From positions 88,724,001 through 88,788,000 of the forward strand of contig NC_086108.1 of the NCBI RefSeq assembly GCF_963921235.1: DNA of 64,000 bases. Reading direction: 5' to 3'. Made by a program: the position numbers and the translations under genes. The notes beneath the pieces were generated by a model. It was not told the origin of the DNA, ran no database searches, and saw only the letters and a program-made list of their open reading frames with translations. Below are positions 9,032 through 61,649 of the stretch, piece after piece. The stretch's first letter is position 1; each line of letters starts with the position of its first letter. This stretch comes from Mobula hypostoma (Eukaryota).

Positions 9032-9071
<40 letters not shown>

Positions 9072-15000: not shown

Positions 15001-18000
15001 TAAAAGTGAGGTGAGAGTGGATGAATTTCCAGCATCTGCAGAATTCCTGTTGTTTGCGTTTAAATTCACTACTGTGAAGCCTCTTCCGGTGATGCCTACA
15101 CCAAAGAAGTTTAGATCCGCTCTTCGACGGGAGTTCAGTGAAACCATCTCTCACTGCTCAAATCCCTTACTCACTCTTCCTTCAGTTAGTCCTGACGAAG
15201 GGTCTCGGCCTGAAACGTCGACTGCACCTCTTCCTATAGATGCTGCTTGGCCTGCTGCGTTCACCAGCAACTTTGATGTATGTTGCTTGAATTTCCAGCA
15301 TCTGCAGAATTCCTTTTGTTTGTGAGAGTGGATATTGGACCATTGGAAAATGACATTGGAAAAGTAGTAATGGGGGACAAACAAATGGCAGATGAAATTA
15401 ATAAGTATTTTGTGCAGTCTTCACTGTGGAAGACACTAACAGTATGACAGAAATTCAAGAATGTTAGGGGGCAGAAGTGAGCATTATTGCTATTATTAAG
15501 GAGAAGGTGCTTGGGAAGATGAAGGGTCTCAATGTACATATGTCACCTGGACCAGATGAACTATACCCCTGTGTTCTTAAAGAGGTGGCTGAAGAGATTG
15601 TGGAGGTATTAGTAATGATCTTTCAAGAATCAATAGATTCTGGCATGGTTCTGGAGGACTGGAAAATTGCAAATGTCACTCCACTCTTTAAGAAGGGAGA
15701 GAGGCAGAAGAAAGGAAACTATAGGCCAGTTAGTCTGACCTCAATGGTTGGGAAGATGTTGGATTCCTCTATCAAGGATGAGGTTTCAGACTACATGGAG
15801 CTGCATGATAAAATAGGTCAAAGTTTCGTAAGGGAAAATATTGCCTGACAAATCTATTGGAATTCTTTAAGGAAGTAACAGGCAAGATAGATACAGGAGA
15901 GTCGGTGGATGTTGTTTACTTGGATTTTCAGAAGGGCATTTGGCAAGGTACCACACATGAGATTGCTTAGCAAGATAAGAACCCAAGGTATTACGGGAAA
16001 GATACTTGCATGGATAGAAGATTGGCTGACTGGCAGGATGGATAGAGTGGGGGAAAAAGGGGGTCTTTTCTAGTTGGCTGCTAGTGACTAGTGGTGTTCT
16101 GATATGGATGGTGTTGGGACCACTACTTTTCACGTTATTTGTCAATGATTTTGGTGACTGAATTGATGGCTTTGTGGCCGAGATTGTGGACCATACAAAG
16201 ATAGGTCAAGTGGCCTGTAGTATTGAGGAAGAAGGGAGTCTGCTGAAGGACTGAGACAGAGTGAGAATGGGCAAAGAAGAGCCAGATGGAATATAGTGTC
16301 CAAAAGTGTCTGGTCATGCACTTTGGTAGAGGGAATAAAGGTGAAGACTATTTTCTAAGTGGGGAGAAAATTCAAAATTCAGAGGTGCAAAGGGATGTGG
16401 AAGTCCTTGTGCAGGATTCGTAAAGATTAACTTGCAGATTGAGTAGGTAGTAAGAATCAAAAAGGCACAACAGCATCTTTATTTCCTGCGGAGCATCAAG
16501 AAAGCTCACCTCTGTCCCAGGATACTGACGGACTTTTACCACTGTACCATTGAGAGCATGCTCACCAACTGCATCTCAGTGTGGTATGGCAATTGTCCCG
16601 TATTGGACCACAAAGCTCTCCAGCGTGTGGTGAAAACTGCCCAGCGGATTATCGGCACCCAATTTCCCACCATTGAGAACATCTACCATAAACGCTGCCT
16701 GGGCAGGGCGAAAAGCATTATCAAGGATGCATCTCACCCTAACCATGGACTTTTTACTCTCCTCCCATCCGGTAGGCGCTACAGGAGCCTCTGCTCCCAC
16801 ACCAGTGGGCACAGGGAGAGCTTCTTCCCTGAGGCTGTGACCCTGCTGAACCTCACATCACAGCGCTGAGCAGTATTGCATCCATATTGTACTGTCTCAG
16901 TACTTTTATATTTGTGTGCTGTAGCACTTACTTTTTATTCACAGTTATTTTGTAAATAACACTATTCTTTGCATCTCTGGTCAGATGCTAACTGCATTTC
17001 ATTGGCTTTGTATCTGTACTCGGCACAATGACAATAAAGTTGAATCTAGTCTAATCTAATCTAAATTCAATGTTAACATTCATTTTAAGAGGACCAGAAT
17101 AGAAGAGAAAGGATGTAATGCTGAGGCTTTATAAGGCATTGATCAGACTGCACCTTGAACACTTGGAGTACTGTGAGCAGTTTTCAGCCCAATATCTAAG
17201 AAAAAAATGTGCTGACATTGGAGCAGGTCCAGAGGAGATTCATGAGAATGATTTTGAGAATGAAAGGGTTAATGTATGAGGAGTGTTTGATGGCTCTGGG
17301 CCTGTATTTGCTGGAGTTTAGAAGAATGAGGGGCTATCTCATTGAAATCTATCAAATATTAAAAGTTCTGGATTGAATGGATGTTTGTCACGGGAGGATG
17401 TTTCCTGTAATGAATGAGTCTAGGATGAGATGACACAGCCTCAGGCTAGAGGGACAGCCATTTAGAACAGATGAGAATCTGTAGATTTCATTCCCACAGG
17501 CAGCTATGGAGGCCAAGTAATTGAGTATATTTCAACTGTAGGTTGATAGGTGCTTGATTAGTTAGGGTGTCAAAAATTATGGGGAGAATGCAGGAGATTG
17601 GGGTTGAGAGGGATAATAAATCAGCTGTGATGAATGGCAGAGAGGACTTGATGGGCCGAATGACCTAACTTGCTCCTGTGTCTTCTGGTCTTATGATTGG
17701 GGTCTACATTCACATAACCTGAGTTTTAATGTTAATTGCATGTGTCAAACCCAATACAAATTCAGCAATAAGCCCAGAATTCAAATTGCTGAATTCTCTC
17801 GAATGATCATGATAATGCAGCAGGCAGTGCCACCTTGTGGTTATGCTTTTACAGTTTTCAGAAATATAATACAGTTTTCTATCATAATTCTTTCAGGCTA
17901 GAGAAGTAGGGGCTCAGAGTTTGACTTTGCTGTTCAATAAGATTATACCCAAGCCTTCGTTACTTTTATTTCCAGTATGATCCTGAAAATATTTCTCTAA

Positions 18001-21000
18001 GTGTCTAAAATACTATCAGTTTCAGTCTTGATTTCATTCTGTCTGGCTCCATACAGGTTTAGTACACCTGATTTGTATCTTGCCTATAAATACACGCAGA
18101 CAGGCAGTATGGATTTAAAAGAATTTAGTCATTAGTCTGAGATTGGCTCAGGCTATATGTGTTAATGTTAGCTATTATGAATGGCAAAGCAAGACTTAAA
18201 CTGCTTCTCCAGATTATCCATTCCTGTGGGATAACCCATCTCTTCAGGCAGCCTCTGCCATTTGACTTGCAAACATTCTGGGTTATGAATAGTTCTCAGA
18301 AATGGAACCCTGCTGTAACCTGAGGAGAATCATGAGCCATTTGCAGAGGAGAATCCCAAAGATTCAGAATACAGTGGAGTCTGGTTAATTGGGCCATCAG
18401 TTAATTCAACAGCCGTTTATTTGGGACGTCTAAAGTAACAAAAACTAAAAATCAAGAAAAAGGCTGGGATTTCCTTCATTTATTTGGGACAATATGCCAT
18501 TTAATTGGGACAAGATCCTGTTGCCAAATAGTTTCTATCTAGCATCAGTCGCATGCATTTACATGGCCATTAGACACCACGCCGTGCTTAGAGTGATCAG
18601 TTTTTAAATAGAATCAGAGTGTAGTTTTGGTTCAAAAAGCAGTGATTTGGAATTGTTTTGTTCACCATGGTTTCAAGCCTTCTGGCTTAGAGATGTCAGA
18701 AACATCCGGAAGTGGAAATGAAATAGTTTCACTGCTTGAACAAGTTAAGAACTGCAAAGAATTTGAAGATGTTGACAATCATCTTGAATGTTACAATGAA
18801 AATTAAGATTCAGAGGATACAATCTGCAATTATCTAAAGCATTTTATGAAGAGATTCCATTATATATACTCGGTGTGTACACTGACTTTGTTCATTTGCA
18901 GTCAATCAAAAGAGCATGTTGGATGAAATCTTCAGTGGATAACTATTAGGAATTAATGCACAGATTTATAATACTGTAGAGGTATTGATAATGTTCTAAT
19001 TGGTTCTTTTTAAAATTAAAATACATAAAATGTTACTCAGTAAACTAGTTTTTTTATAGCTTTTAATTATTTCCATGAAACTTCAGCTAATTGGATCAGC
19101 CACTTAAATGAGCCAAAATGCACGGCGCTGATGTGTCGCAATTAATAGTATCCATTGAACTCATACCTTGTTCTTTATCCTGAAAGTTTTAGCCCTTGAA
19201 AAGCCAAGCATCTCCCTACTGTGTATCAATTCATAATGTTATCAAATATGACAATGGTTCTGGGTCTAAGAACTTGATCCATCAAGTTGAATTTCTCAAT
19301 AGACTGCAGCAATTTAATCAATCTGTAAAATGCTTGTCTCCCTGTTTCATAAAGTGATTTACTCTTAATAAAAATTATTATTTTTTGTAACAAAGCTTAT
19401 TAAAGAGGAATCAATACCTGAGCAACAGTTTTTAAAAAAAAACATTTTATACCTAATCCTATTTCCACTAGTTTGAGTTTCCCAGTAAAATGAGTCTCAT
19501 TGATAAGAACAAAAGGTTTACTGATTTGGGTTGTATCATTAGTGCATTCAAAATGCATATATATCACTGTATACAGAATAGTGAGATATATTGACTGTTC
19601 AGGTGTTGACATTTCATTGTGTTGCATATAATTGTTGATACCATACACCATGTTCTGGACACACAGCTGTGCACTTAGACAGTGAGGGAATTAATCTAGA
19701 GTCATTGTTTTTAAAGTGCATGTGCTCCATTATCGTTTCAGTATCCTGTCTTGTTTTAGGTGCACAGCATTCTGATGATGACCACAGTATTGTTTACCTG
19801 CATTGGTTTTATTCTTCCTTTTATTTACAGAGGAGGCTGGAACCAGGTAAGTCGGCATTTACTGTTTTGGTAGTAAGTGGAAAATAGTATTTTTCTTTAC
19901 TTTTCGATGCTAAACTAGCATAATGCATGAACAGTCATAATTCAGTCAATTGTTCATTACAAGTCCATGAACATACCAATATTTTCTATGCCTTTGTACA
20001 CTTACACACACATAGAAGCTCTATTTTGCATGCTCTAAAGTTATGTTTTAATGTGGTAAAGGAGATAAGTGTGGTATATATCACATCAGGAGATATCTGG
20101 GCAGATGCCAAAGAGAATTTTTTTAAGGAGAGGAGGAGACAGGGTGTCGAGATAGGAATCAGAGTTTTTTAATTCTTATTAGCTCTTTAGTTTTAAGTAT
20201 ATCCATCTAGTTGATTTATTTTATGGTTCGGACTTTATACAGATGTATTGTTCTGATTTGAACTTCTGGCTTGGTACTCTGTTTTCCTAATGTAGCCCTC
20301 AATCCTCCCTTGTCTAAAGCCATTGATTCCTTGCACTAGTATATCATTTGCTATCTCTCCAAAGTAGAAGTGACCAGGAATATTTTCACCTAATTGCTTG
20401 AATGAACCCACAGAAGGCCAACATTTGTCTTGTTTTGATTAAGGATTTATGTGGTAGACCCAGCCAATGATTGTAAATAGTTGGGGTCTGGCTGCTGTGG
20501 GGAAAGGAGATCAAAGGCTGGGTTGGGGTTAGAGGACATGCTAAGGGCTTGGTGCCTAGAGTCAGGAATGGATTGTGGACCAAGGCCTAAACATCTGGGA
20601 TCACAGCTCTGGAAATTGCAATAAGGTATTGTCCTTTGCAGACAGGCTTCTTATCTTATTGTGCAAGCAATCTTGGACATCTTTTCCTAAGAACCAATAT
20701 AGTTTGGCTGACTCAGGGCAAGCCAATATTACCATGGACAAAATAACAGTGATATTATGCCCATTTTATGTGTGTAGAAAATCTCTAAAGCATGCTTCGG
20801 ATATTAGTAGCGGACATCTCTACTTTAGTCTTGCCCAATATCGTCCATGGAATATAGAGAATTCTGTGACCTCACTAAGCAAATACCATTGCAGTGTTCA
20901 GTGAAGTCACATAAGTTTCATTAAGAGAATTTATGGGAATCTTTACGAAAGGAGCAATTGAAGCAATCTGTAAAATGCTAGTCTCACTGAATTTCACGTG

Positions 21001-24000
21001 GTGATTGTGTTTCACTTTCAATAAAGTAAAGCACCTTAAGGGTAGTAATCTCTAGATTATTCCCAGTGCCATATACTAGTAAAGAAAGAAATAAAAAAAG
21101 ACAGCTCAGATGAATGTGTGGCTGAGGAACTGGTGAAGGGGGCAGGGATCTAAGAGCTTGGATCTTGTGTCAAGAATTCAGGGCCTGCATGATCTTGTGA
21201 GAGTGAAAGACAAGGCTGATTGACAAGGGATGTTGAGACTCTGGTTAAGAAAAAGAAGCATGCACTGCACATAAGCAATTGAGAACTAGTGAATTTCTTG
21301 CTGATGACAAGAAGAGTAGGAGTGCACTTATAAGGGAGGTTAAGAAGGCAAAAAGAGAATACGAGAAAGACCTGGCAGGCAAGTTGATGCAAAATCCCGG
21401 GATATTCTACAGGTAATTAAGAAGTAAAAAGGGTGGCTAGGGAGAGGATAAGTTCCCTTAAATATCAAATCGTCCAAAAGGAAATGGGTGAGGCTTTCAA
21501 TAAATATTTCTCTTCAGTTTATGCTGTGGAGGAAATTATGGGAGGTAAGGAAATGGAGCAAATGAGTGGTTTTGGCTTAAGGCACATACAAATTATCAGG
21601 GAGGAGGTATTAGAAGCCCTAAAGTACATAAAGGTGTCTAAATCTCCAGGGCCTGACCCAGTGCATTCTCAAACCTGATTGGAAGTTAGAGATAAATTGT
21701 TAAAAGAGCTGGCATGATATAGTTGAGGTTACAGCACCAATGATCTGAGTTCAACTCAGCCAACCAAGGGCAACTAGGCCTTAGATGAGAGATCTAGCAA
21801 CTCCAAATTCAGAGTTCCCTGATATCCACTATTACAGTGCCTGTGTCCTGGGTTCATTTCCCAATTCTACTTGTAAGTAGTTTGTATGTTCTCCCCACGA
21901 CCACATAGGTTTCTTCCAGGTGCTCCAGTTTCTTCCCCAGTTCCAATGACATAGGAGTTAGTAGCTTAACTGGTCACACGGGTGTAATTGAGCAGCGCAG
22001 GCTTGTTGGGCCAGAAGGACCTGTTACTGTGCTGTATCTACAAATAATAAATAAATAAATAAAAATTGTGGAAGCCTGTGCAGAGATTTCTGTTCTTTCT
22101 CTGGTCAGAGGTGAAATTTTGCAGGACTGGAGACTAGATAATATGGCACGATTGTTGAAGAGGGTAGCAGAAACTACAGATCAGTGAATCTGACACTGGC
22201 AGTCGGTAAACATCTGCAGGAAATTTTCAGGGACAGGATCTCCAGCATTTGGAGAGATAGGGTTTGATTTAGGACAATCAGCATGGCTTTGTGCATGGGA
22301 AGTTGTGCCTAATAGATCTCTCAGAGTGCTTCAAGCAGGTAACTAAGAAGGTAGGTGAGGGTAGGGTCATGGATGTTGTCTGCATGGACTGTAGCAAGGC
22401 TGTCAATGAGATCCCTTAATGCAGGCTAGTCTGGAAGCTGAGATCACATGGGATTTGGGGGTGGAATCACAGATTGGATTCATAATTGACTCAGTGGTAG
22501 GAAACAAAAGGTGATGGTCAAGGATTTTTTCACCTACTGGAGGCTGGTGTCCAGAGGTGTGCCACATGAGTCGGTACTGGGAATTTGTTGTTTTTAATTT
22601 ATATAATTGATTTGGACATGAATGTACAAATCATGGTTAGTAAGTTTGCAGATGATATTAAGTTAGGTGGTGTTTTAGATGGTGTTGAAGGTTAAGAAAA
22701 ATTACAGGGGTATTGTATCAGCTTGGTGTTTGGCTTTCAATCCTTGTAAATGTGAAGTATTGCCTATGGAGAGAAAATCATGATAGGACCCTGGGAACAT
22801 TAGGGACAGAGGAACCAAGGAGTACAAGTGCATATTTTGCTGAGAGTAGTGTCACAGGTAGATAGGGTGGTGAAGAAAGCATTTGGAATACAGACTTTCA
22901 TCAGTCTGGGCATTGAGTATTGGATTTGGGAAGTTATGTTGCACTTATATACACTAGGAGATTGGTGAGGCTGCATGTGGAGTATTAAGTACGGTTTTGT
23001 CACCTTGTTATGGAAATGATGTTATTAAATTAGAGAGAATTCAGAAAATATTTCTTAGAATGTTACCTCAACCTGTGTGCCTGAGTAACAAAAAGATGCT
23101 TCATGATCAAGGACTTTATTCCCTAGAATACAGGAGATAAAGGAGTGATGTGATAGAGGTATATACAATCATGACAGGTATAGAAAGGCTGATTAAGACA
23201 GATTGGCATAATCAGTCTTTTTCCCAGGGAGGGAGTGCATAAAGCAAGATGGCATGCAGTAGGTTTAAGATCAGAGGCAAGAGATTTAAGAGACATCAGG
23301 GACACCCTTTAGCGGAATGGTACTTCATGCAAAGAATGGTCAGTATCAGGAATTAGCTGCCGGAAATAGTGATTGAGGTAGATTCATTATCAACATTTAA
23401 AAGACATCTAGAAAGTACACGGGTAAGAGAGGTTTAGGAAGCTGCAGGTAGATGGAATTAGCTCGTTGGGCAACACTCAATACTCTAGAGCCTGATTCAG
23501 TTGTTGTAAATAAGCTTTATATTATTAGGAAGAATCAATACTGTAGCAACAATTTTATTTTAGCTATGATATTTTATATTTAGTTCAGTAACAATTGACT
23601 TTTGAAATATTGCTGATACAATTCCCATTCCTCAGTGATGACATGACTGATCCACCATCAAACTGTTGTTGCCCTGGAACCAAACCCAAATTGTGTTAAA
23701 GAGAAAACGGGACAAGAAGTAGGAGTTTCAGGGCAAAGGTTTGCAAAAAGATAATTCTTAGCTGTAATGTGTCAAGTTTCTAAGGTGAACATTTCTCCAA
23801 ACCAAAGACCATATTGCCCTGGCAAAGAGGAATGACAAACTCAAATAGTAATAAACAGCTGAAAACAATTAGTAGCTCATGTGACACCCATGTGGTAATC
23901 ATACCTAACATTTGCCTGGTAGAATATAATGAAGGCAAGGCAACTGGGTGCTAGTGCTCAGTCTATGATCACATTCATTCAAAATTTAAGATGTGGGAGG

Positions 24001-27000
24001 AATGAAATTTCAATGGTCTATTTCCCTCCACAGATGCTGCCTGACTCACTGAGTTCCTCCAACATCTGGTTTTTGCTTGACTTTCAGCATCTGCAGTCCC
24101 TTGTTACTCCATCACATTCATCCAGTTTACTTGCCTTCTCTGACCTCTTCTGTTCATCCTTTCGCACTGTCATTTTGGTACTAAATAGCACAGTCCAGGA
24201 CCATTACTTAATGTGAACAAATTAACTTTGTATGATCCGATATAAATACTTTGAGTTAGAAAACTCATTTTAAAAAACTGTGTATACGTCTCTGCCCGCC
24301 CACCAAGGATGTTCTCTTTTCTTCGCTCTCCCATTGGGCAGAAGATACAAAAGCTTAAAAGCACATACCCCAAGGCTCCAGGACAGCTTCTACTCCACTG
24401 TTACAAGACTCTTCAATGGACCTCTTGTATAAGACCATAAGACCATAAGAAATAGGAGCAGAATTTGGCCATTGGGCCCATCAAGTCTGTTCTGCGATTT
24501 CATCGTGTCTGATCCAATTTCCCTCTCATCCCCGATCTCCTGCCTTCTCCTGTATCCATTCATGCCCTGACCATTCAAGAATCTATCAACCTCTGACTTA
24601 AATATAAATAAAGACTTGGCCTCCACAGCTGCCTGTGGCAAAGAATTCCACAGAGTCACCACTCTTTGTCTAAACAAATTTCTCATCATCCCTGTTCTAA
24701 AAGGATGCCCCTCTATTCTGAGGCTGTATCCTCTGGTCTTAGATTCTCCCACCATAGGAAACATCCTCTCCACATCCACTCTATCAAGGCCTTTCACCAT
24801 TCAATAAGTTTCAATGAGGTCATCCCTCATTCTTCTGAATTCTTGTGAATACAGGCCCAGAGCCATCAAATGCTCTTCATATGACAAGCCTTCAATCCTG
24901 GAATCAATCTTGTGAATCTCCTTTGAACCCTCTCCAGTTTCAGCACATTCTTTCTAGGATAAGGAGCCCAAAACTGCTCACAATACTTCAAGTGAGACCT
25001 CACCGGTGCTTTATAAAGTCTCAACATTACATCCTTACTTTTATATTCTAATCCCCTTTAAATGAATGCTAATGTTGTACTGCCTTCCTCACCAAAGGCT
25101 CAACCTGCAAATTAACCTGCACAAGGACCCATAAGTCCCTTTGCATCTCAGCGTTTTATATTTTCGCTCCATTTGGAAAATAGTCAACAGTTTCATTTTT
25201 TCTGCCTAGTTGCATGACCATACACTTCCTGACACTATTCCATCTGCCGTTTCTTTCCCCCTCTGCTAATCTGTCTAAGTCCTTCTGTAGGCTCTCTACT
25301 TCCTCAAAGCTACCTGCTCCTCCATCTATCTTCATATCATCTGCAAATTTAGCAATAATGCCATCAATACCATCATCCAAATCATTGACATAATGTAAAA
25401 AGAACTGGTCCCAAACCAGACATCTGTGGAAAACCACTAGTCACCGGCAGCTCGACAGAAAAGGCTCCCTTTATTCCCACTCTGTCTCCTGCCAGCCAGC
25501 CAGCCACTGCTTTATCCATGCTAGAATCTTTCTTGTAATACCATGGGCTTGTAGCTTGCTAAACAGCCTCATGTGTGGCACCTTGTCAAAGGTCTTCTGA
25601 AAATCCAGGTACACAATATCAACTGATTCTCCTTTGTCTATTTTGCTTGATATTTCTTAAAAGAATTTCAACAGATTGGCCAGGCAAGATTTTCCCTTGA
25701 GGAAACTATGCTGACTACAGCCTATTTTATCAATGACTCCAAGTACCCTGAGACCTCATACTTAAAAACTGTCTCCAATATCTTCCCAACCACTGAGGTC
25801 AGACTAACTGGTGTATAACTTCCTTTCTTCTGCCTGTCTCCCTTCTTGAAGTGGAGTTACATTTGCAATTTTCCAGTCTTCCAGAACCATTCCAGAAGCT
25901 AGTGATTTGTGTAAGATCATTACTAATGCCTCCACAATCTCTTCAGCCGCCTTTCAGAACTCTGGAGTGTCCACCATCTGGTCCAGGTGACTTATTTACC
26001 TTCAGACCTTTCAGATTCCCAAGAACCTTTTCTATAGTTATGGTAACTTCATACACTTCATGCCCCCTGACACCTGGAACTTCCACCATACTGCTAGTGT
26101 CTTTCACAGTGAAGACTAATGCAAAATGTTTATTCAGCTTGTCTGCCATTTCCTTGCCTCCCATTCCTACCTCTCCAGCATTGGTTCCAGTGGTCTGTTA
26201 TCCACTCTCGCCTCTCTTTAACACTTCATGCATCTTAAGAAACTTTTGGTATCCTCTTTAATATTATTGGCTAGCTTACTTTGCTATGCCATCTTTACCT
26301 TCTTGATGACATTTTTAGTTGCCTTTTGTTGGTTTTTAGAAGCTTCCCACTAATTTTTGCTCTATTACATGCCCTCTGTTTGGCGTTTATGTTGGCATTG
26401 ACTTCTCGTTAGCCATGGTTTTGTCATCTTTCCTTTAGAATACTTCTTCCTCTTTGAGATGTATATATCCTGTGCCATCCAGATATGGACTCAACCTCAC
26501 AACCTACCACATTATGATCTTGCCAATTTATTGTTTATCTGAACTGCACTTCTCTTTAGCTTTTACACTTTATTCTGCATTTTTATTGATTTACCTTGTT
26601 GCCCACTGTAATAATTTGATTTGTATGAATATTATATGCAAGCTTTGAACTGTATCTAGGTACATGTGACAGTAATAAACCAACCATCACCACCATTGTG
26701 TGTCATATTGGATGATGTGGGTGATCATGGTCTCCATGACCATGATTGTTCTTGGCAAGTTTTTCAACAGAAATAGTTTGCCCTTATTCTGGGCAGTGTC
26801 TTTACAAAGCTAGTGCCCTTAGCTATTACTAATGCTCTTCGTAGATTCTCTGCCTGATGTCAGTGGTCATATAATCAGGATTTGTGATATGCACCAGCTG
26901 TTCATATGACCATCCACTACCTCCTTCCATAGCTTAACATGACCCTGATCACGAGGCTAAGCAAGTACTACATCTTGCCCAAGAGTGACCTGCAGGCTAG

Positions 27001-29872
27001 TGGAGGGAGGGAGCACCTTATACGTCTTTTGATAGAGACATATCTCCACCCAGCCACCATAAAGCAGTACCAATATCAATACAACAATGTATTGTGGAAA
27101 AACAACTTACGTTACAGAAGAAAACTGTTCTGCAGACATTACTTATTTCAATAATAGTAAGGTATAGGAATGTCTAAATGTACAATCAATGAATGGATGC
27201 AAGTCATTTTACATTTACTAATTTAAATTCTCTTAAGTAGTTTCAATACCCATAAGCTTCAGTTCTTGAAAGAGCTCTGTATAATTTGGTATGTTTATTG
27301 TTTGTAATGTGGGTACATGAACTTCTATCTCCCTGTAGAATGCCGGAGCTCATCCATACTTTGGCTGTATAATACTTACACTGGTGATTCTACAGGCACT
27401 TGTGGCCATACTCAGACCCAATCCGTATGCTCCCAGGTAGGTCTATCAGTAATTGTAATACTTCCCTGTAATCTCTTCTGACACAACCTTTGATAATAAG
27501 AAAGGAAATCAATGTAATGTTAAAATACCTTAAACTAAGATCAATGGGGAATATAGTATGTTTTAAAATAGCAAGCCATATCACTATAACTTCTACAACT
27601 TGTTTATTTTAATATTCATCATCTATAGGCGATATCTCTTTAACTGGTTTCATTGGACTACAGGCACTTTTGCTCGTATAATTGCGGGTAAGTTTAAAGA
27701 AAAATGTTTTTAATTAATAAAGACTTTCTAATAAATCTTGATAAAATGGGCTTAAATGCAGACCAGTTACAGCAGGACTAAGGATTTATTAAATCAATGG
27801 ACATGCCTCATGGTGGAATTCTGAAAACTGGTTCTCAGCTGATTTTCATTAAACAGTATGGAAACTTCCAATGAGAATTACAGAATACAGGACCTTATGT
27901 TAACTTGTGACTCCTTCAATCTGCAATGAATGATCACCTTCAGAATTAATTTCCTGTGCACCTTGACTAGTAAGTAATGCAAGGGTTCTTCAAAGGGATA
28001 GAAAAAAGAACATATTGAATACACAAGGAGGTGTGTGGGGGGGAATATATGCTTTTAAAATGGTAACAATGTACAAGTGAAAATCTGTACAAAATTTAAT
28101 AAAATAGAAGACCATGCCTTCACTAAGTATTATCTGTTATTTGTACACTATATAATTCTAATGAGGTTCCTTAAGGCTGTTATAGCTGGGGGTGGTAATG
28201 GGGACAATTTCCCACTGATATAAGATGCTCCCAACAGAGTGTGCCTCAAATAGCCTCCGCCAACTAAGTCCAATTCTGGCCTTCACATGTGGCTTAGCCA
28301 CTAAACCTGGCGGAACCATTTCTACCAACAGAAGAGGGAGCAAAGGTGAAGTACTGGCGACTTTCAATCCATTGCTTTGGGCAGATGGGGCTTGTCAGCT
28401 ATGGGGAAGAAAACCTCTGATCTAAAGCCTCTGCTGCCTTGCAACTACACCCACTCATGGGGAAGGCTTTGACAGTAAACCCGAGGGAAAAATCCAGAGC
28501 TGGAGTACATTGAATTCAATACTGACTGGCAACTCCTGTAACACTGCTGGTACCAAACTGTATCAGTCTCTGCCATTCCTTTGGGTTCACCAGATGCGAG
28601 GAGAGGGGGAGCTTGCTACATGGGCAGCAGCTTGTTCTCCATATCGTACTGCCCTGGCTTGTGTATCTAGACAGCTAGGGCACAACATCCACGGTCGACC
28701 CTGACTGACGGAGGGTCATACCATACCAATTCCAATGAACGTGATGGTTTTTTGCCTTCATGGGAGACGATATCTTTTAATTTCAGATATTCTTCCATAG
28801 TGGCCATAGCTTGGATTATCCTTTCACAGTGGACATCTGCCCAACTTGTATTATTTCACCAGAGTTATTGTGGAAAGTAATATCAGTTTTTACTTTTATT
28901 ACATTATTGGGTATTCATTAGGAATTGCTGACTAGAATGAATTGCTGACATTTAATTTAATCTTCACACAGTTGGATCGATCTTTCTTGGAATGGATCTA
29001 CCAGCCCTGGATCTCCATAACCCTTGGGATACATTAGTAATGGTTGGATTCATAATTTGGCATGTGGCAACAGAACTAATTCTAGAAGCACATAATTACA
29101 TAATTACTAGTAAAGGTCAGGGTTTGTTTATATCACTTGTAGTTAATTTTAATGTTTCTTACATTACTGTGAGAATTTGTAAGACCACTGGGATTCCAAA
29201 CCACCTCAACAATTTAGAAGTAATGAAACTGCTAGACATTTGATTTAATGCTACCGTCAGGGGAAATATTTCTCAGTAATCTCTTCATAGTGCTTCATAT
29301 GCTGATGAATAATGGTTGTATCATCAGCAGTTTACACCTAAGCACTGAAACTCCTGCTCTCAATCTCTGATTTCTTTTAAGCTGCTCCTTAAAACCTCTC
29401 TTTGCCCATGCTGTGATTGTTGACTTCAATATCACATGTTACTCAGCAATAAGATTTACATTTTCCAGCACTCTTATAGTTTGATTTACAATGTATAAAT
29501 GGAAGTTTCACTGTTACCTTAGATCTTGCTGAAGATGAATTTTGATTTCATCTTTTCGTAGCACGGAAACGAGAAGAGGATAAAATGGAGATAATGGATT
29601 CGAGTGAATTGATTGATCCACAGGTAACACAATGTTGGCTTTTGATTTTTATTATGGCTGGAAGCATCAGAATTACATAACTCTTTCAGTGACTTTCATT
29701 TAAGTAACAATGCAGAAATATTGTAACATAGCAGGAAAGTAATTTCAATTTGAATTCATATTTAATCCTACAATTACAGGGTCATAGGCTTAAAATGATG
29801 ATATTAACAATCTACATCTGTGGAAACCTAACATTTCTGATAACATTACTTGTTGGAATTAGCCTTATTTGA
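1097..29872 (+). CDS. FRRS1: Ferric-chelate reductase 1 (DOMON + cytochrome b561), 5'-partial, 10 exons: 1097-1195, 2187-2334, 6748-6861, 11519-11634, 19760-19846, 27339-27436, 27629-27687, 28972-29115, 29562-29623, 29780-29872
   Basis: Hand-spliced at GT-AG junctions with matching phases: 1020 nt, 339 aa + TGA. The peptide follows vertebrate FRRS1 ([46 protein letters not shown]). The four b561 heme His (KAH, VH, AHP, FHW) are present. Confidence 0.96.
1335..1775 (+). mobile_element. CR1 LINE 3' fragment
   Basis: RT C-terminus ([15 protein letters not shown]) plus 3' UTR and ctatgttct-type tail. Confidence 0.8.
2187..2334 (+). CDS. FRRS1: FRRS1 exon (DOMON): [22 protein letters not shown]...[13 protein letters not shown]
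   Basis: tggcag acceptor, gtgggt donor, 148 nt, phase 0/1. Confidence 0.95.
2571..2780 (+). mobile_element. tRNA-derived V-SINE-like element
   Basis: Pol III-like head, gtttgtacgttttccc...ccacattc central domain, A-rich tail. Confidence 0.55.
2785..5700 (+). mobile_element. Tigger/pogo-like non-autonomous DNA element split by an L1 insertion (pieces ~2785-2890 and ~5195-5700)
   Basis: Collinear with the uninterrupted copy at 18372-19157. Confidence 0.65.
2895..5175 (-). mobile_element. L1/Tx1-clade LINE ORF2 remnant, frameshifted and internally deleted; contains a CR1 tail at 2934-3102
   Basis: [37 protein letters not shown] and HMFWSC motifs; poly(T) on + at the 3' end. Confidence 0.88.
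5790..6370 (+). mobile_element. Old, highly decayed CR1 3' region
   Basis: Residual RT C-terminal and 3' UTR similarity. Confidence 0.45.
6748..6861 (+). CDS. FRRS1: FRRS1 exon: [16 protein letters not shown]...[12 protein letters not shown]
   Basis: ttaaag acceptor, gttagt donor, 114 nt, phase 1/1. Confidence 0.93.
7414..8662 (+). mobile_element. CR1 5' region: repeated 5' UTR and ORF1 (Cys finger + SGNH esterase)
   Basis: [49 protein letters not shown]. Confidence 0.8.
8664..9353 (+). mobile_element. Rearranged Penelope pseudo-LTR cassette
   Basis: Pyrimidine-rich pLTR matching 58181-58620 and 53170-53614; includes (TC)n at ~9035-9069. Confidence 0.8.
9303..9338 (+). ncRNA. Minimal type-I hammerhead ribozyme motif in a Penelope pseudo-LTR
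   Basis: AGUC-CUGACGA-A-GGGU(CUCA)GCCC-GAAA-CGUC^GACU: intact core, stem II, palindromic ACGU stem III, stem I AGUC/GACU. Confidence 0.8.
9360..9860 (+). mobile_element. CR1 RT fragment
   Basis: [21 protein letters not shown] RT motif; [11 protein letters not shown]. Confidence 0.8.
11519..11634 (+). CDS. FRRS1: FRRS1 exon (b561 TM): [26 protein letters not shown]...KKIWFL
   Basis: cttcttag acceptor, gtatgt donor, 116 nt, phase 1/0. Confidence 0.95.
11913..12231 (-). mobile_element. tRNA-derived SINE with 13-bp TSD AAGAGACTGAAAT
   Basis: A-box-like TGGCGGAAC and B box GGTTCGAAAC on -; TSD at 11900-11912 and 12232-12244; paralogous to 38711-38993. Confidence 0.85.
12640..12940 (+). mobile_element. 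Rex1/Babar-type LINE RT fragment
   Basis: [35 protein letters not shown]. Confidence 0.75.
12941..14030 (-). mobile_element. CR1 ORF1 end plus APE endonuclease
   Basis: [40 protein letters not shown]. Confidence 0.85.
14069..14263 (+). repeat. 195-bp element, copy 1 (copy 2 at 23634-23828)
   Basis: Directly alignable by eye. Confidence 0.9.
14723..14954 (+). mobile_element. Short solo LTR (232 bp)
   Basis: TG...CA ends, internal AATAAA, 5-bp flanks AATAT/AATTT; interrupts otherwise contiguous CR1 sequence. Confidence 0.65.
15023..15321 (+). mobile_element. Non-autonomous Penelope mini-element with hammerhead and 12-bp TSD
   Basis: TSD GTGAGAGTGGAT at 15011-15022 and 15322-15333; ~33-bp terminal direct repeats. 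Confidence 0.85.
15188..15223 (+). ncRNA. Minimal type-I hammerhead ribozyme motif (Penelope-derived)
   Basis: AGUC-CUGACGA-AGGGUCUCGGCCU-GAAA-CGUC^GACU. Confidence 0.75.
16456..17063 (+). mobile_element. Rex1/Babar-type LINE 3' end
   Basis: [38 protein letters not shown] followed by a (TCTAA)n tail. Confidence 0.8.
18372..19157 (+). mobile_element. Tigger/pogo-like non-autonomous DNA transposon
   Basis: TA-CAGTGGAGTCTGGTTAATTGGG left end and degenerate inverted right end (caattaatagtatccattg). Confidence 0.65.
19760..19846 (+). CDS. FRRS1: FRRS1 exon: [29 protein letters not shown]
   Basis: ttttag acceptor, gtaagt donor, 87 nt, phase 0/0. Confidence 0.95.
21030..23505 (+). mobile_element. 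Degenerate, internally deleted CR1 containing a V-SINE-like insertion (~21710-22063)
   Basis: KSPGPD motif and RT remnants; SINE core gtttgtatgttctcccc with an (AAAT)n tail. Confidence 0.7.
23634..23828 (+). repeat. 195-bp element, copy 2
   Basis: Directly alignable with 14069-14263. Confidence 0.9.
24431..26470 (-). mobile_element. CR1 ORF2 3' half, inserted into a Rex-type 3' end (~24262-24430 and ~26470-26680)
   Basis: KSPGPDG, KFADDMK and [10 protein letters not shown] motifs; (ATAAGACC)n tail on +. Confidence 0.85.
27339..27436 (+). CDS. FRRS1: FRRS1 exon: [33 protein letters not shown]
   Basis: cctgtag acceptor, gtaggt donor, 98 nt, phase 0/2. Confidence 0.95.
27629..27687 (+). CDS. 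FRRS1: FRRS1 exon: [19 protein letters not shown]
   Basis: ctatag acceptor, gtaagt donor, 59 nt, phase 2/1. Confidence 0.95.
28160..28720. mobile_element. Non-coding interspersed repeat, possibly RTE-related
   Basis: GC-richer block in an AT-rich intron; family call is by impression only. Confidence 0.3.
28972..29115 (+). CDS. FRRS1: FRRS1 exon: [20 protein letters not shown]...[11 protein letters not shown]
   Basis: cacacag acceptor, gtcagg donor, 144 nt, phase 1/1. Confidence 0.95.
29562..29623 (+). CDS. FRRS1: FRRS1 exon: [20 protein letters not shown]
   Basis: ttttcgtag acceptor, gtaaca donor, 62 nt, phase 1/0. Confidence 0.9.
29780..29872 (+). CDS. FRRS1: FRRS1 last coding exon: [30 protein letters not shown]
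   Basis: ttacag acceptor; C-terminal TM helix; TGA at 29870-29872. Confidence 0.95.
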   Translation, partial: GHRLKMMILTIYICGNLTFLITLLVGISLI

Positions 29873-30237
29873 CGGTCACTCCACTGCCTCCTGCATTTTT
29901 GCCTCCATCGAACCGGTCTTTGCTGATGCCATCTGATCTTTTTCTGACGAGACTGCTGCTTTCCTGCTTGTCATGCACCGAACTGAAGATCCATCAGCAG
30001 GGAACTGAAATGCTGCACCAAAAGACTTACTGTTTTACTTTCTATTTAGGAAATAGCACGAGTGTGAATTATTTAAAGATTAACAGTGTTAATAATAAGC
30101 AATAAGGCAGAATTCGGCGAAACTGACTTTGAATGAAGTGTGAATAGCAAGCAGTTACAACGTTTGTAGTTATGGATTACTTTAGTGGTTTTGGATTTTT
30201 TAATAGATACAGATGTTCACTTGGTCTACAAAATAAT

Positions 30238-30243
30238 AATAAA
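30238..30243 (+). terminator. Candidate FRRS1 polyadenylation signal
   Basis: AATAAA ~365 nt after the stop in an AT-rich 3' UTR. Confidence 0.4.
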
Positions 30244-32399
30244 TGTAATGTGGATCAAAAGTAATGTTATTAAAAAGTAACCTCAAATTAATAGTGATTC
30301 AATGTGTTTTTTAAAATTGTTTTGTAAGTGAACTTGTCCTATTAAATTAGCAATTTAATGGACTTTAAAAAAAGTTTCCTTTTCCAACTCAGCATAATTT
30401 GAACTAGTATATATTGAGTTTGAACAATTGTATCGATAATTTTTACATCTATTGCTGTGTGTATTGCATTCATGATGCCACCTTGATTTTTAATTCTTAG
30501 TCCAAGGAGTTGAATTTTAATATTTGTGAATTATGGAAACTGTGTTTTCTAGTTTGATCGATGTGATTGTATTTTAACTTTATAGTGTTAGTTGAAGATA
30601 TACACAATTCAGAGAAAAAAATTCTCTTAGACCATCATCATTTCTGTATGCATCTTTTAAACCGGATTCTCAGAATATTATGCCGCAGCGCAAGTCTTTC
30701 CAACATTGTAGTGAATTTGTAGACACATAAACACTACATATCAATGAATTTTTGGTAGCAAAACTGCAAAACAGGATAAAGGCTGCCAGATACAATCATT
30801 AATGTAGAAATATTAAATAGTAATGTTTCATATCATTAGAGATTGCACTCTACAAAAGTACATAAAAAGAACCCATGCACAGATTACATTTAATAATAAA
30901 ATAATACCTTAAGTACAAAACAGGTCAAACAGCCATGAAACTGAACATATTACCTAATTGTTCTCTTTCAGATGTTGATCAATGCTTTTACTTTTGTTAT
31001 CCATACATTCATAATTTTTATCAGCATCTTGTTCCAAATGTGTTTCTTATTCAAAAGGGTAATATATATATATACAAAATTTGGGTGAAGTATGGTCAAA
31101 GTGTTCTGTTCTGATCACATATTATGCTCCACTGAATAATATTTCTTAAGGGAATTCAAAGCCAAACCACCATTTAAAACTATGTTAGACCCCAATGCAT
31201 CTCAGATGACATTATTTCATTGCAAAATATTTTAGGTAATCTAAAACTGTATCATTGCCTTAAGATTGCCAATGATCTTTCAGATAAAATATGAGACCTC
31301 AAATAATAGTTTTGCACCTCCACCGTCCACCCCCATGCTCCCCATCTTGTCCAGCCGAACCCAACTGCCAGTCTCATGCAGCTATTGTTTTCTGACATGC
31401 TTATGAAACGATTGACACAAGGGCGACTGCTTATCCTAGAAATCTGGAGCAACACACACAAAATACTAGAGAAACTCAGATGTGCAATTGTGTGCAAAGG
31501 AAATTGAGACCCTTTCAGAGGTCTCAGCCCAAAATGTGAACTGGTCAATTCTCTCTGCAGATGCACCCTGACCTGCTGAGTTCCTGCATCATTTTGTGCA
31601 TTTTGCTTATGAAGTTCTTTTTGATTTTGTAGTTGCTGGCACATCTAGCAATCTCTAGGTTCAGTGCCAGGGCATTCTTGTGATGAGTTCTTATTGATCT
31701 TGTGCCCTGCAGACAAATGATATATTGTTAGTGCATCTACAGAGGCTCATCCTGCACCAATTGCTTTAATGGAGGAATTCAACTGAAAGGTTCCAAGTTA
31801 TTGCAGATACCATAAAAGATTACAGCTGGAAAAGTGACAGGTCATAGCAGAGGGTGGCCGTACTTATACCTGGTGATCTTGAGGAAATATAACGGAGAGC
31901 ATTTGGTGTCAGATTTAATACAACTCATCTGCAATAATCTTCAGTTTTTATGGCAGAAAAACAAAAATACATAGGTAGATCCAAAATAAGAGTAACAATA
32001 ACATTATTGTTGAACAACGTAAATCAAGAAAGGTTTCAAAGAAGGGAACAGTTTTCCACTGAACTCCTAAAGAAAGAATGGAAGGAGGTTTAGGTTTCAA
32101 CTTACAATTAAATAATAATAAACTCCCCTAAATGCCTCAATGATTTTTTTCTCTTTTATCTGTAAATTAATGTCAATTTTGTGAATTTTGTCGGTTCATT
32201 CACTTTGCTTTAAGAATATTGTGCATGGCTTTTAAAATGCTCATATTGCCCACTGACAAATCCCATGAGTCTGTGAGTTATACTGGGCGGTGAAACAAGC
32301 TGGAAGAATAAAATACACACTGTAAATTCCCAGCAAAAAAATAGTTGTCCACTGTTGCATGAAAAAAATGAAGAATTTGTTAAAGAAATAATTACAAAG

Positions 32400-33420
32400 T
32401 TTGAACATAGATTATAGAATAATACTGCTAATACAGGCCTTTTGGCCCATGGTGTTATGCCAATCTACTCCATGATTAATCTAACCCCTCTCTCTTATAC
32501 AGCCTATAAACCTCCATTTCCCTTACACCTATTTGTCTATCTAAGAGTCTTTAAAAGGCCCCTACCGCAACCCCAGCAGTCCATTCCAAGCACCTACCAC
32601 TTTCTGTGTAAAATAACCTAGTTCTGATATCTCCCTAAACTTTCTTCCACTCACCATATACAGATGTCCTCTAGTATTGTCGGTGCCACCATGTGAAAGG
32701 GACACAGCACTGTAGAGCAGTAGTGAACACAGTTGGATGGAACTGAAAAGGATGTGAAAGGAAATGTAATGGAATAGATGGACCTAGGAGTGCATAGTTT
32801 GTTAAAAGCAGCATCACGTGGTGGTGTAAAAAGCACATAGGACACTGCCATCATCAGTCAAGGCACTGAGTAGGGAGCTGGGACATTATGTTGCAACTAA
32901 GTAAGGAATTGATGAGGCCACACTTGGAGAACTGTGTAAAGTTTTATTCACCCTGTCTGGGAAAAACATGTTTAAACTGGAAAGAGTGTTGAAAATATTT
33001 ACCAGGACTAGGGGGCCAGAGGCATAGGAAGAAGTTGGAAAGTTTATGCCTTTAAATTTTTAGAAATGTTTAAAATTAAAAGGGGCATAGATAAGATGGA
33101 TGGTAGCAGTCTTGTCCCCATTGAACTCCAAAACTAGTGGGCATTGGTATAGGGTGAGAGGGGAAAGATCTGAATGGGACCTAAGGGATAACCCTCTCAT
33201 GTTGAGGGCAGTGAGTATATGGAATGAGTTGCCAGAGGAAGTGGTTGAGGCATGTACAATAATATGTTTCATGAAGCACTTGGATAGGGACATGGAGAGG
33301 CAAGATTTAGAGGGATATGGGATGAACTTAGGAAATTGGGTCTAACTGGGTGAGCATTGTGATCAGCATAGATTTGTTGGGCTAAAGGCCCTATATCTGT
33401 GCTATACTGCTCTGTGACTC
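32400..33420. mobile_element. Two decayed CR1 3' ends (- at ~32400-32700, + at ~32720-33420)
   Basis: VSIWNELPEEVVEA; 3' tails. Confidence 0.7.
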
Positions 33421-36112
33421 ACCTCTCAAATTTAATTGGTTCAACTTTACCTGAGAGTAAATTATTGGCTGCATTTGAAGATCCCAAACTCTCCTCAGAA
33501 GCTCTTGCTGCTTCATGGAGACTACACCTTTGCTTACGGAGCTCATTCTCCCTTTGTAGAGCTTCTTTGATCTCCTGACTAATGATGGAATGAGCTCCAT
33601 GTGAGCGGAGTTTGAAGAAGGGGTTATTTTGCTGTGTGTCTTCTCTTTGGATTGATGAGTTAGAAGACAGTGGTAAGCATGAAGAACGTTGTATGATCAG
33701 GTTTGGTGTTTGCAGTATTACGACGTCAGCAGTTTCTGTATTTGAATAGTTGAGATTCAATACAGAATCTTTAACATTTGCCTTGTCTTTCTCAGAAGCC
33801 AGTAGATCATCTTGCAATATAAGTACATTGGAAACTTTGGTTTCATTACTGAAGGGATTCCTTATAGGAGGTGAAACCAGCAATGTGGCTGGAGAAGTAA
33901 TAGATGGAGCTAACATTTTATTGGGAAATGAGAATGGGAAGGGATTTTGCTGATCAAAAAACTTCCTTTTCCCCTCTATCTCTGGAATCACACTTTTGTT
34001 GTACCTTCCCGAAATCTTTCCCTGCTGTATAAGATCTTCCTCTCTGTGCCGTTCAAGTAACATTTCACGTTGTATTTGCATCTCAGCAAAATGATTATTT
34101 TTGACCTTAGGCGATGAAGAGGGAGAAACAGGCAGCAAGCTCAGAGGCCTGGATTTGATCTCCGTGTATTTTTCAGAGCAAGGAAGTGTGATCATGCCTC
34201 GGGCTTTTCTAAGACTCTCCTCGCGCTTTAGACTGAGGCGAATCTCCTTTTCAATAGGTGTCTCAGGCTTCTCATTCATCATGGGCAGGGAATGCGATGA
34301 TTCGTTCTGAACTACAGGCTCAAGCAAGTTGTTACCTTGAAGTCTATGTGTCCTGTCGTCCAGTCCAGAATCATTCCCTTCTGGGCAAGGACTACAATAA
34401 TCCAATAATAAATTCTGGTCTATAGCCCCTGTCGTGCCATTCTTCTGTTGTGATGCCACCACATCCTGTTCTTTATTTGGATTTGTTGAATTTCTCATGC
34501 ATTCATCTGTTAGAGTTTTGATTCCTGTTGACCCCTTGCTTTGCATGTTATCTTCTGAGAGCAAAGGTCCAGAAAGGGGTGAGGCTACTTCATTTTCTAT
34601 TGATTTATTGATGGAAGAGTCATCTTCTTTCTCTTTAGTAACATGTTTGGTTACCATTTTATTCTTCTGCTCTTTGACTGATGGCCTGTAACTGTGTGTC
34701 CTGCTCATCGCTTCCAGCCTCAGCCACTGTTTGCGAGCCGTGGCAAAATCCATGTGTTCCATGTCCACACTTTGACTGTCTGACACCTCAGTCTCGTGCT
34801 TCACCCCTTGAAATGGCTTAGCAGATTGAGTTTTAATACCCCAGGGCTTGAACTGCGTTTCGTCACTCTGGCCTGGGCTATTTCTCTGTCTTTGATGCTG
34901 CAGTTCCATTATCTCCAACACAAGCTTCCTATTGAGAGAAGTCAAGCTTTCAGCTGAACCATATCTTTTAATGAACTTACGGTTAAGTTGATTTGTCTCT
35001 GTATGTTTTTGGAGGCATTTGAACTTGTTCGTCTGATCTGATCCCAACTCTTCTGCATATGGCACTGGAGGAGTGGTGATTGGCAAAGGTTCATTTTGAA
35101 TAGCAGTTGAAATGTTTTTGGACTCCTGTTGATATATCAACCTGTTGCATGGTGTTTGATTACTGTTGCTGCCTGAATAAGCAATCCTTCCACTTTCATC
35201 CATCACTGACAGATTAATTAAGTCTTTATTGTCCTGTGGCATGCCTAAAATATTTGGACTTTCCTTGGTCAACTTAGTTAAATCAGTTGAGGAAAAATTA
35301 TTCGGCTTTTCTTCATTTTCACTCATTTTTGAAGAGTTTTCAGACATAACTCCATTGGAGGTTAATACTGACTGATTTGATGTTGATTCCTTTTTAGATT
35401 TGGCGCTTGCTACCGTAGCTTCATTTCCAGTTTGGAAATTGTCCACCATTTTTTCTTGGTAGACCTCAATTGGAACAGTGGCAACTGAAAGAGGTTTCTT
35501 GGCAAGGATCTGTCCTGTCACCTCTAAATCCTTTTGTGCTAATGTGCCTGCAGTTTGGGTAACCAGTACTGTAGCTGGAAAGTCTTTGAAGTACTCTTTG
35601 TGTGTTGTGCCACAGGTTACTTTTGACATTTCATAAGATGAAGGCCTTGTTTCAAACTGCATAGCATGATCGAAAACCTTTTTGATTTTGAGAACTTCGC
35701 CTTGAAGATCATGGTTTAGGTTTTCTGAATTGTCATTACAATTTTCATTATGTTTTGTTGAAGTGGATTTTGCTATTAATTTGCAACTATTGAAGGTTTC
35801 CTTTATGTCTTTTAACACAGCGCATTCGTGTGTGGCATTCACATGAAGTCCGCCTTGTGGATCAATGGCCTTCTCTGTTAGTTTTGTTTCCATGGTAATA
35901 GGTTTCGACACATAAGCTCTTTCAGAACATGAGAAGTCTACACCAGAGTCCATAGTTACAGCTGACGAACAAGCATCTCTAATGTCAACATCATTTTCTT
36001 TTCCATTCTTGACCTCCTCAGTCAGAACACCACTTTGCTGCATAGTCAAATATGCACGTAAATTAGTCACAAGATGCTTTAAACAAACTTTTCCACAAAG
36101 CACATGATACAT
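33419..36112 (-). CDS. Large coding exon of a MISP/AKAP2-family (mitotic spindle positioning-like) protein; 897-aa ORF
   Basis: Long uninterrupted non-TE ORF with family motifs DFATARKQWLRLE, DSGLDD, ETPIEKEIRLSLKREESLRKARG, QREMLLERHREEDL and NPFFKLRS...SQEIKEALQRENELRKQR. Likely donor CAG|GTAAAG at 33451. Candidate acceptors at 36124 and at 36037 (phase 0, CTAAT branch point ~26 nt upstream). Exact orthologue unresolved. Confidence 0.88.
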   Translation of the reverse strand: MYHVLCGKVCLKHLVTNLRAYLTMQQSGVLTEEVKNGKENDVDIRDACSSAVTMDSGVDFSCSERAYVSKPITMETKLTEKAIDPQGGLHVNATHECAVLKDIKETFNSCKLIAKSTSTKHNENCNDNSENLNHDLQGEVLKIKKVFDHAMQFETRPSSYEMSKVTCGTTHKEYFKDFPATVLVTQTAGTLAQKDLEVTGQILAKKPLSVATVPIEVYQEKMVDNFQTGNEATVASAKSKKESTSNQSVLTSNGVMSENSSKMSENEEKPNNFSSTDLTKLTKESPNILGMPQDNKDLINLSVMDESGRIAYSGSNSNQTPCNRLIYQQESKNISTAIQNEPLPITTPPVPYAEELGSDQTNKFKCLQKHTETNQLNRKFIKRYGSAESLTSLNRKLVLEIMELQHQRQRNSPGQSDETQFKPWGIKTQSAKPFQGVKHETEVSDSQSVDMEHMDFATARKQWLRLEAMSRTHSYRPSVKEQKNKMVTKHVTKEKEDDSSINKSIENEVASPLSGPLLSEDNMQSKGSTGIKTLTDECMRNSTNPNKEQDVVASQQKNGTTGAIDQNLLLDYCSPCPEGNDSGLDDRTHRLQGNNLLEPVVQNESSHSLPMMNEKPETPIEKEIRLSLKREESLRKARGMITLPCSEKYTEIKSRPLSLLPVSPSSSPKVKNNHFAEMQIQREMLLERHREEDLIQQGKISGRYNKSVIPEIEGKRKFFDQQNPFPFSFPNKMLAPSITSPATLLVSPPIRNPFSNETKVSNVLILQDDLLASEKDKANVKDSVLNLNYSNTETADVVILQTPNLIIQRSSCLPLSSNSSIQREDTQQNNPFFKLRSHGAHSIISQEIKEALQRENELRKQRCSLHEAARASEESLGSSNAANNLLSGKVEPIKFER

Positions 36113-36631
36113 TCACTCCACAAACTGCACAGAAATTTCTATTCACTGGATCAGATTTTAAACAGAGGTCACGTGGAGAAATCACATGGTATTTATTTAA
36201 GTAACAAAAGAGTTCTGTTTATCAGATGGCACTTATCCCGGGGCCTAGATGTGAAATACTGTAGATAATGTAAATTTTTAATTCTTGCTTGTGAGACCAC
36301 GTGTGTATTTTTGTTTTGCACATTGAAGTTACTCCATTAAATGTAAGGGCAAAGGAAATGTCTATGTACATATATATTTAAGTGCTTTCTGTAATATTTC
36401 AGAGACTGCATCAATACCTTCATATAGTGATTGTACTGTTTAGCAGTGCAGTTAGTTCTTGCACAGTATTTTGAAAACATTTTAATGAGACAACATTTTT
36501 GTGAGAAAACCCGTCAGTTCATGGATCATATACAAAATAAACACATCTGTAATTCCACTTCCTATTTCAGAGGTTTTCTAACATATGCAACAGAGTTTCA
36601 CATCTGTACACTTTAGCTGAAAAGAGGTAAA

Positions 36632-53614: not shown

Positions 53615-54099
53615 TAAGGAAGATCGCAGCTTTTGATGACTGACATACCACTGGAGACTGGACCTGAACGTCCGAGGTCAAGAGAGTGGAACTTCCCCGG
53701 TGCAACAGCTTTTTCATTTTAAAAACTCTCCCACACAGGATTCCTGTCATCATTGGACACAATGGACAACTACCAGTTCATTTATAAACTCCTTCCTGGC
53801 TTCTATTTCAGTCAACGATGCAAATGATTGTTTTTCTTTGGACACTCTCCACCTATCTTCAACAACTGCTAAGTCAATGGTATTTATCTTTTACCTCAAC
53901 ATTCTTTCCAACTTCAAGGTTCAAAAACGTGGTGTCACTTCCCAAATCTGTGCTCGTTTTTATTATAACTTCATTCGAATCCTCCCACAGCACAAAATGC
54001 TACTTGATTCGTAAAAATATGCTCTTAGTTTTCTGTCACTATATTACATGACTTCTCCTCATCCTCTCCATCGTTTTGACAACCACATTATTTTTTTTT

Positions 54100-61611: not shown

Positions 61612-61649
61612 CAGGAAGTTTCTAAACATCAGCCAAACTGAAATCATTT
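61612..61649 (-). CDS. Candidate 38-nt exon (E)MISVWLMFRNFL
   Basis: tttttgttctgtcag acceptor and CTG|GTAAGT donor; ATG at 61647 is in frame with the downstream exons. Confidence 0.45.

Follow-up and report, generated by a model that had tools for sequence, protein, structure and literature searches.

A probable ray orthologue of the paralemmin downstream gene PDG4 in Mobula hypostoma, predicted to lack the terminal WE motif of its family

The genes that follow the paralemmins along vertebrate chromosomes were defined as paralemmin downstream genes, PDG1 to PDG4, by Hultqvist et al. (2012; PMC3405040). That study reports PDG4 next to PALMD in teleosts, with three zebrafish ESTs reading through from one gene to the other, and it found the position after PALMD without a PDG4 in human, mouse, chicken and frog; from the elephant shark and lamprey it reports no PDG of any kind. 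A C-terminal PDG motif containing WE is described there as invariant. Among the members of the family, MISP is the one with actin-bundling data in the papers cited here: its binding to F-actin was measured at 0.76 uM, and it bundles or cross-links filaments, with the affinity mostly in its C-terminal half and without a recognisable actin-binding motif (PMC9097542); further actin data are found in PMC3601349. Only MISP, MISP3 and AKAP2 are treated in the available parts of PMC9145010 and PMC3601349, and a literature search, with most subscription journals outside its coverage, returned no further paper on PDG4 and no experiment with any PDG4 protein. Because PDG4 was named and its absence from four tetrapods recorded in PMC3405040, the notion of a fourth member lost from mammals was already published; a sequence-only reading of the DNA considered here had put forward such a fourth member as a possibility, and was in this respect anticipated in 2012. 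The mammalian loss of PDG4 itself rests on that study.

Here we describe a gene in a 64,000-nucleotide stretch of the Mobula hypostoma genome (contig NC_086108.1, positions 88,724,001 to 88,788,000; hereafter the window) that, judging from its sequence relationships, is very probably the PDG4 orthologue of this ray. PDG4 is the PALMD-linked gene in the MISP/AKAP2/MISP3/PDG4 family. The minus strand of the window holds an ORF of 897 aa (33419-36112), the longest by far among 34 ATG frames of at least 100 aa. The sequence-only reading had presented this ORF as a gene with family motifs; the frame exists and carries a match to Pfam AKAP2_C at aa 831-883 (E 1.4e-5, 24.9 bits, slightly below the cut-off of 27), but it corresponds to one exon and not to the whole gene. 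Because splice sites were located at 36037 (acceptor) and 33451 (donor), ORF aa 1-25 and 889-897 are read as what is most likely intron sequence, and the N- and C-termini of homologues part from the ORF at the same two points. A counterpoint is a single Hypanus gene model that begins with the identical 25 residues. The upstream exon, whose 12 residues all equal the N-terminus of the Hemitrygon model, would be spliced to 36037, and a transcript made up of this 12-codon exon, the large exon of 2587 nt and the short last exon would give a product of about 894 aa, a figure calculated by hand from the exon boundaries. Four read runs were compared over 29000-37000. In run X4, from a relative at about 92% identity and of RNA status by the tool's guess, one contig links 31710 directly to 33455 with 1744 bases missing, which is the predicted intron length, and in a second contig the alignment ends at 36038 with 41 letters unaligned. 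The DNA-like run X9 continues through both splice sites, and runs X1 and X2 cover the gene in patches only. Rfam gave 0 matches. The coordinates of all features are collected in Table 1.

Table 1. Positions of the predicted PDG4 exons, conserved protein blocks and convergent neighbouring gene within the window.
Feature	Position	Strand	Basis or remark
Upstream coding exon, 12 codons, GT donor	61612..61647	-	in phase with large exon
Large coding exon, 2587 nt, ORF aa 26-888	33451..36037	-	splice sites and homologue divergence points
DF..AR.QW block, aa 455-463	34724..34750	-	motif counts across four classes
Charged repeat copy 1, aa 616-639, starts with ETPIE	34196..34267	-	purpose-built profile, 39 bits
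Charged repeat copy 2, aa 840-863, within AKAP2_C match	33524..33595	-	purpose-built profile, 30 bits
Last coding exon, 20 codons and stop if spliced directly	31645..31706	-	Narcine and Amblyraja tails matched by tblastn
Probable 3' untranslated region, at least to 31169	31169..31644	-	covered by the X4 contig that joins 31710 to 33455
Convergent FRRS1-like gene, 3' part	2187..29872	+	Pfam DOMON, frames, stop
FRRS1-like gene: DOMON match	2187-2321	+	Pfam E 1.1e-5, 26.1 bits, below cut-off 32.7
FRRS1-like gene: membrane-type exons	near 11520, 27620, 28970	+	reading frames
FRRS1-like gene: last exon	29780-29872	+	stop ends at 29872

The closest proteins come from stingrays, with 87-88% identity to Hemitrygon and Hypanus, and named MISP, MISP3 and AKAP2-like proteins also occur among the homologue matches. 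Proteins gathered by homologue searches and by a profile search (best 150 of 452 matches) fall in four clades. One of these clades unites the window protein with its shark, ray and chimaera orthologues, a protein labelled P0023 and ray-finned proteins, and it was recovered in four trees: with support of 100/99 in the first (63 rows, 630 columns), SH-aLRT 98 in the second (104 rows restricted to the core, after removal of a short one), 98/96 in the third (41 rows, mixture model) and 93/98 in the fourth (25 rows, lamprey outgroup), the smallest, in which bootstrap support drops to 93. On the 25-row set, AU tests gave p 6.8e-5 against a grouping with MISP, 0.0043 against AKAP2 and 0.019 against MISP3 (0.024 with P0023 added). 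Together, these rejections and the trees identify the window protein as a fourth paralogue, and they bear out two earlier guesses, namely that it is no orthologue of MISP, MISP3 or AKAP2 and that it belongs to a fourth family clade, the PALMD-linked one. The other paralogues exist beside it in related species: MISP, MISP3 and PDG4 are separate proteins in the elephant shark, as are MISP, AKAP2 and PDG4 in the horn shark, stingrays possess a separate MISP-clade protein of their own, and rays a separate AKAP2.

Teleost PDG4 was recognised in the trees through palmdelphin-fused gene models, many ray-finned members of the clade being models that include a paralemmin domain and go by the name of palmdelphin or palmdb. 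In a milkfish model of this kind Pfam Paralemmin matches at E 7.5e-23, and gar and bichir entries named PALMD share 90% clusters with PDG4. One fused cod entry, as a counterpoint, carries the name paralemmin-3. The teleost genes stand in databases as si:ch211-153l6.6 and as palmdb fusion models; by the trees presented here, si:ch211-153l6.6 would be the PDG4 of PMC3405040, although the si: name is absent from Table S1 of that paper. With the teleost PDG4, PDG4A and PDG4B described in PMC3405040, the ray protein shares its clade in all four trees, a first-exon motif, a VILET-type block and one large coding exon, and like stand-alone teleost PDG4 it is without a paralemmin part. It differs from them in two extra core stretches, in lacking the terminal WE and in an N-terminal half that cannot be aligned.

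Motif counts were made across classes assigned by purpose-built profiles, with many near copies among the members. On this footing DF..AR.QW was found in 154 of 161 PDG4-class, 30 of 31 MISP and 23 of 23 AKAP2 proteins and in 3 of 93 MISP3 proteins. Two further motifs, both picked after viewing the alignment, are diagnostic of the PDG4 clade: the VILET-type block (149/161 PDG4-class vs 0/147 other paralogues) and the short N-terminal motif of the first exon (39/161 vs 0/147). The two charged repeats are, in our reading, the small repeated motif described in PMC3601349.

The nearest clade to PDG4 is that of MISP3 (99/97 in the 41-row tree), and one may ask whether the ray gene is a cartilaginous-fish orthologue of MISP3 (PDG3, LOC113230) that has moved or been mis-grouped. 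The likeness is real, extending to both charged repeats and to the ETPIE and NPFFKLR blocks common to the two; moreover, 100 of the 138 classified proteins are MISP3-like, and no named shark or ray MISP3 was among the matches obtained. We nevertheless regard a MISP3 orthologue as highly improbable, given the AU results, the separate MISP3-named protein of the elephant shark and the presence here of DF..AR.QW, which 90 of 93 MISP3 proteins lack. MISP3 also forms a separate clade, is without the VILET-type block (93/93) and keeps the terminal WE, and the purpose-built profiles score 623 for PDG4 vs 156 for MISP3, the window protein itself being inside the PDG4 profile. The rejection of the MISP3 grouping, at p of about 0.02, is modest.

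The remaining two paralogues resemble the PDG4 protein in other ways. With MISP (PDG1, C19orf21) it shares the DF..AR.QW, DSGLD and ETPIE blocks and a disordered character, 13 of 17 sequence windows of the ray protein being scored as disordered; unlike it, MISP lies in a separate clade, and the N-terminal block that MISP has in common with AKAP2 does not align to the window protein. With AKAP2 (PDG2, PALM2-AKAP2) it shares Pfam AKAP2_C, whereas AKAP2 falls in its own clade, shows one copy of the repeat and not two, and carries an RII site. As a working picture, the ray product would be largely disordered, an N-terminal spacer being followed by a C-terminal half in which short blocks are conserved and a charged, helical repeat occurs twice. 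From the homology with MISP, we lean towards a cortical F-actin-binding or bundling scaffold; since MISP has no recognised actin-binding motif, the transfer of function to PDG4 is loose. The name 'A-kinase anchor protein 2-like', given to several orthologues at source, would suit a PKA anchor resembling AKAP2. PMC3405040, however, restricts conservation of the RII site to PDG2, and the RII-site pattern is absent from the window protein, a weak test in that the same pattern missed two of three true AKAP2 controls. We hold a PKA anchor to be very improbable.

The N-terminal half of about 450 aa had been declared unrecognisable in the sequence-only reading, and so it proved: it diverges fast, with identities of 87% to stingray, 52% to skate, 39% to sawshark and 26% to chimaera, gave no significant match to six other proteins tried and could not be aligned to bichir or gar (E 0.89-1.0). 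Judged by these comparisons, it is a fast-evolving spacer. In the Atlas, aa 25-445 matched a cluster labelled 'Palmdelphin family protein' at 0.83, which serves as a lead only. Such rapid divergence would also be expected if PDG4 were decaying or relaxed in rays and no longer a working scaffold, a proposition to which the absent terminal motif and two stingray models that stop even earlier, right after the second repeat, lend some weight. Decay is nonetheless very unlikely in our estimation: the 2587-nt exon is still open, the C-terminal half is better conserved than the N-terminal (64% to skate, 60% to sawshark and 44% to chimaera), a relative yields a contig that looks spliced, and orthologues are found in 15 shark and ray species.

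The end of the protein requires separate consideration. The WE motif is missing from the predicted window protein, and none of the 39 isoforms annotated in sharks and rays carries it; in the elephant shark, a chimaera, 2 of 4 models keep WE, and a middle segment is present. The motif is kept in the family from lamprey to tetrapods as well as in the chimaera. Read in its other frame, the last exon of the ray gene contains a decayed copy of the terminal motif in which W is replaced, the profile of that motif being weak on its own there (E 1.2, second among 2779 segments). Of 8 tails from sharks and rays, 7 have a best-case shifted-frame reading that fits the chimaera motif better than 200 of 200 shuffles, and in 5 of the 8 that frame could still contain an unbroken WE if best-case codons are allowed. 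Made on best-case codons and not on the actual DNA, the comparison of tails shows, at that level, a common origin. It is probable that, in sharks and rays generally, splicing the large exon straight to the last one changes the reading frame and thereby eliminates WE; such a shift is most simply explained by a middle exon having been lost.

Annotation could mislead here, however, if the main PDG4 product kept WE through a missed middle exon or another splice and the frame shift were an artefact. Both the tails with a potentially intact WE and the middle segment and WE-bearing models of the elephant shark speak for this possibility, which we rate as unlikely without dismissing it. Against it stand the annotated isoforms, uniformly without WE, the DNA of the window, which has no W in the relevant frame, and the X4 contig, which joins both exons directly. 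The elephant shark middle segment, moreover, found no match in the last intron, and when the intron was scanned for a middle exon that would restore the frame, by a method that could miss weak splice sites, 2 candidates emerged, neither chimaera-like by eye. On its predicted sequence, then, the window protein is a variant by descent without the terminal WE motif.

As to the surroundings of the gene, a tail-to-tail arrangement with FRRS1 had been claimed, and a convergent plus-strand gene with a DOMON exon is indeed present, its stop (29872) lying 3547 bases from that of the ORF; from the likeness of its later exons it would be FRRS1. Of 11 frames searched, 1 matched any Pfam family (DOMON), and an Atlas search with one FRRS1-like exon gave no match. 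In human, PALMD sits tail-to-tail with FRRS1. Within the 64-kb window no paralemmin exon was found (best profile E 2.9), and a bichir PALMD exon had no tblastn match at E <1. One horn shark N-terminus gave two matches in the window, both within repeat-rich DNA. The read-through fusion of AKAP2 with its upstream paralemmin offers a model for PALMD and PDG4, and PALMD exons may conceivably be spliced onto the large exon in this ray, as they are in ray-finned gene models, though we put this forward tentatively.

Beyond the sharks and rays, PDG4 orthologues were found in a chimaera and in bichir, sturgeon, paddlefish, gar and bowfin, and a family member was found in lamprey; RefSeq already lists orthologues, annotated as uncharacterised genes. 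The Hemitrygon and Callorhinchus proteins have the accessions XP_072918864 and XP_007885290. Among the best 150 of 452 profile matches, 23 further representatives were of PDG4 class, 21 of them falling among ray-finned fish in the tree, 1 being lamprey and 1 too short. All 11 named tetrapod proteins in the 63-row tree sit in other clades, and named mammal proteins, for any paralogue, were absent from the matches of the homologue and profile searches (best 150 of 452). P0023 takes a position outside both the cartilaginous and the ray-finned groups: its placement as a MISP3 was rejected (AU p 0.019), as was that of a sister to sharks and rays alone (p 0.0009), while a sister relationship to ray-finned PDG4 was not rejected (p 0.20). 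Our guess is that it represents a lobe-finned PDG4, in which case the loss of PDG4 would be dated to the tetrapod line.

The presence of PDG4 in chimaera, sharks, rays, bichir, sturgeon and gar indicates that the four paralemmin downstream genes descend from the jawed-vertebrate ancestor. A jawed-vertebrate origin of all four is a prediction of the two-round genome duplication model, and it makes the tetrapod absence a loss. What appears to be new is the occurrence of PDG4 in cartilaginous fish, the lamprey family member and the apparent loss of the WE tail in sharks and rays; these fill a gap from the 2012 study and concern a small field, with no new mechanism or gene family. Taking the parts together, we marginally favour a history in which the shark and ray ancestor lost the middle exon of PDG4, so that the frame shifted and WE disappeared, with selection still acting on the remainder of the protein, and in which P0023 is lobe-finned. 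If this is true, the loss of WE would amount to a natural deletion experiment on the terminal motif, and the shark and ray form without it would provide a ready comparison for the role of that motif in MISP and AKAP2.

In three trees (of 63 rows, of 41 rows under a mixture model, and of 25 rows with a lamprey outgroup), MISP pairs with AKAP2 and MISP3 with PDG4, the fourth, PALMD-linked paralogue, with support of 99/97 in the 41-row tree. The names that source databases give to proteins of the MISP/AKAP2/MISP3/PDG4 family are untrustworthy; among the homologue hits, PDG4 and MISP proteins often carry names such as "AKAP2-like," "MISP-like" or "PALM2-AKAP2 fusion protein-like." The family extends to the lamprey Petromyzon marinus, where the C-terminal WE motif is intact in protein P0255 and its cluster, which also possess the family's charged repeats together with a VILET-like block. 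The 2012 paper that defined PDG1-4 reports no family member found in lamprey (PMC3405040).

The stingray models P0002, P0008 and P0009 (Hemitrygon/Hypanus) reach their C-terminus a few residues past the second repeat, earlier than the window protein, and the PDG4 tail is therefore variable even between close relatives. At the opposite end of the gene, the stretch that matches the Narcine orthologue's alternative 5' exon contains a stop codon in the window; it may be an alternative first exon that is non-coding or dead.

Features in and around the ray PDG4 gene (window positions)
Feature	Position	Strand	Evidence
Reverse transcriptase remnant	3819-4142	-	Pfam RVT_1
High-copy repeat	about 31400-31670		Read depth
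Reverse transcriptase remnant	43362-44282	+	Pfam RVT_1, also ALKBH8_N
Match to Narcine alternative 5' exon	53913-54008	-	62% over 32 aa, E 9e-8
Presumed Penelope-type frames	58586-61167	-	Resemblance
Presumed hAT-like fragment	59572-60126		Resemblance

The high-copy repeat showed very high depth in all four sequencing runs; it lies within the probable 3' UTR of PDG4, directly past the stop. Two of the ten repeat-like frames tried against Pfam gave a match, and many further LINE-like fragments fill the introns. The Penelope-like frames, which look like the reverse transcriptase of a Penelope-type element together with a GIY-YIG nuclease and are split by the hAT-like fragment, gave no match in the Pfam search.

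One further homologue, P0023 (892 aa), represents a PDG4 lineage placed outside both the cartilaginous and the ray-finned groups. Should its source be a lobe-finned fish or an amphibian, P0023 would date the loss of PDG4.
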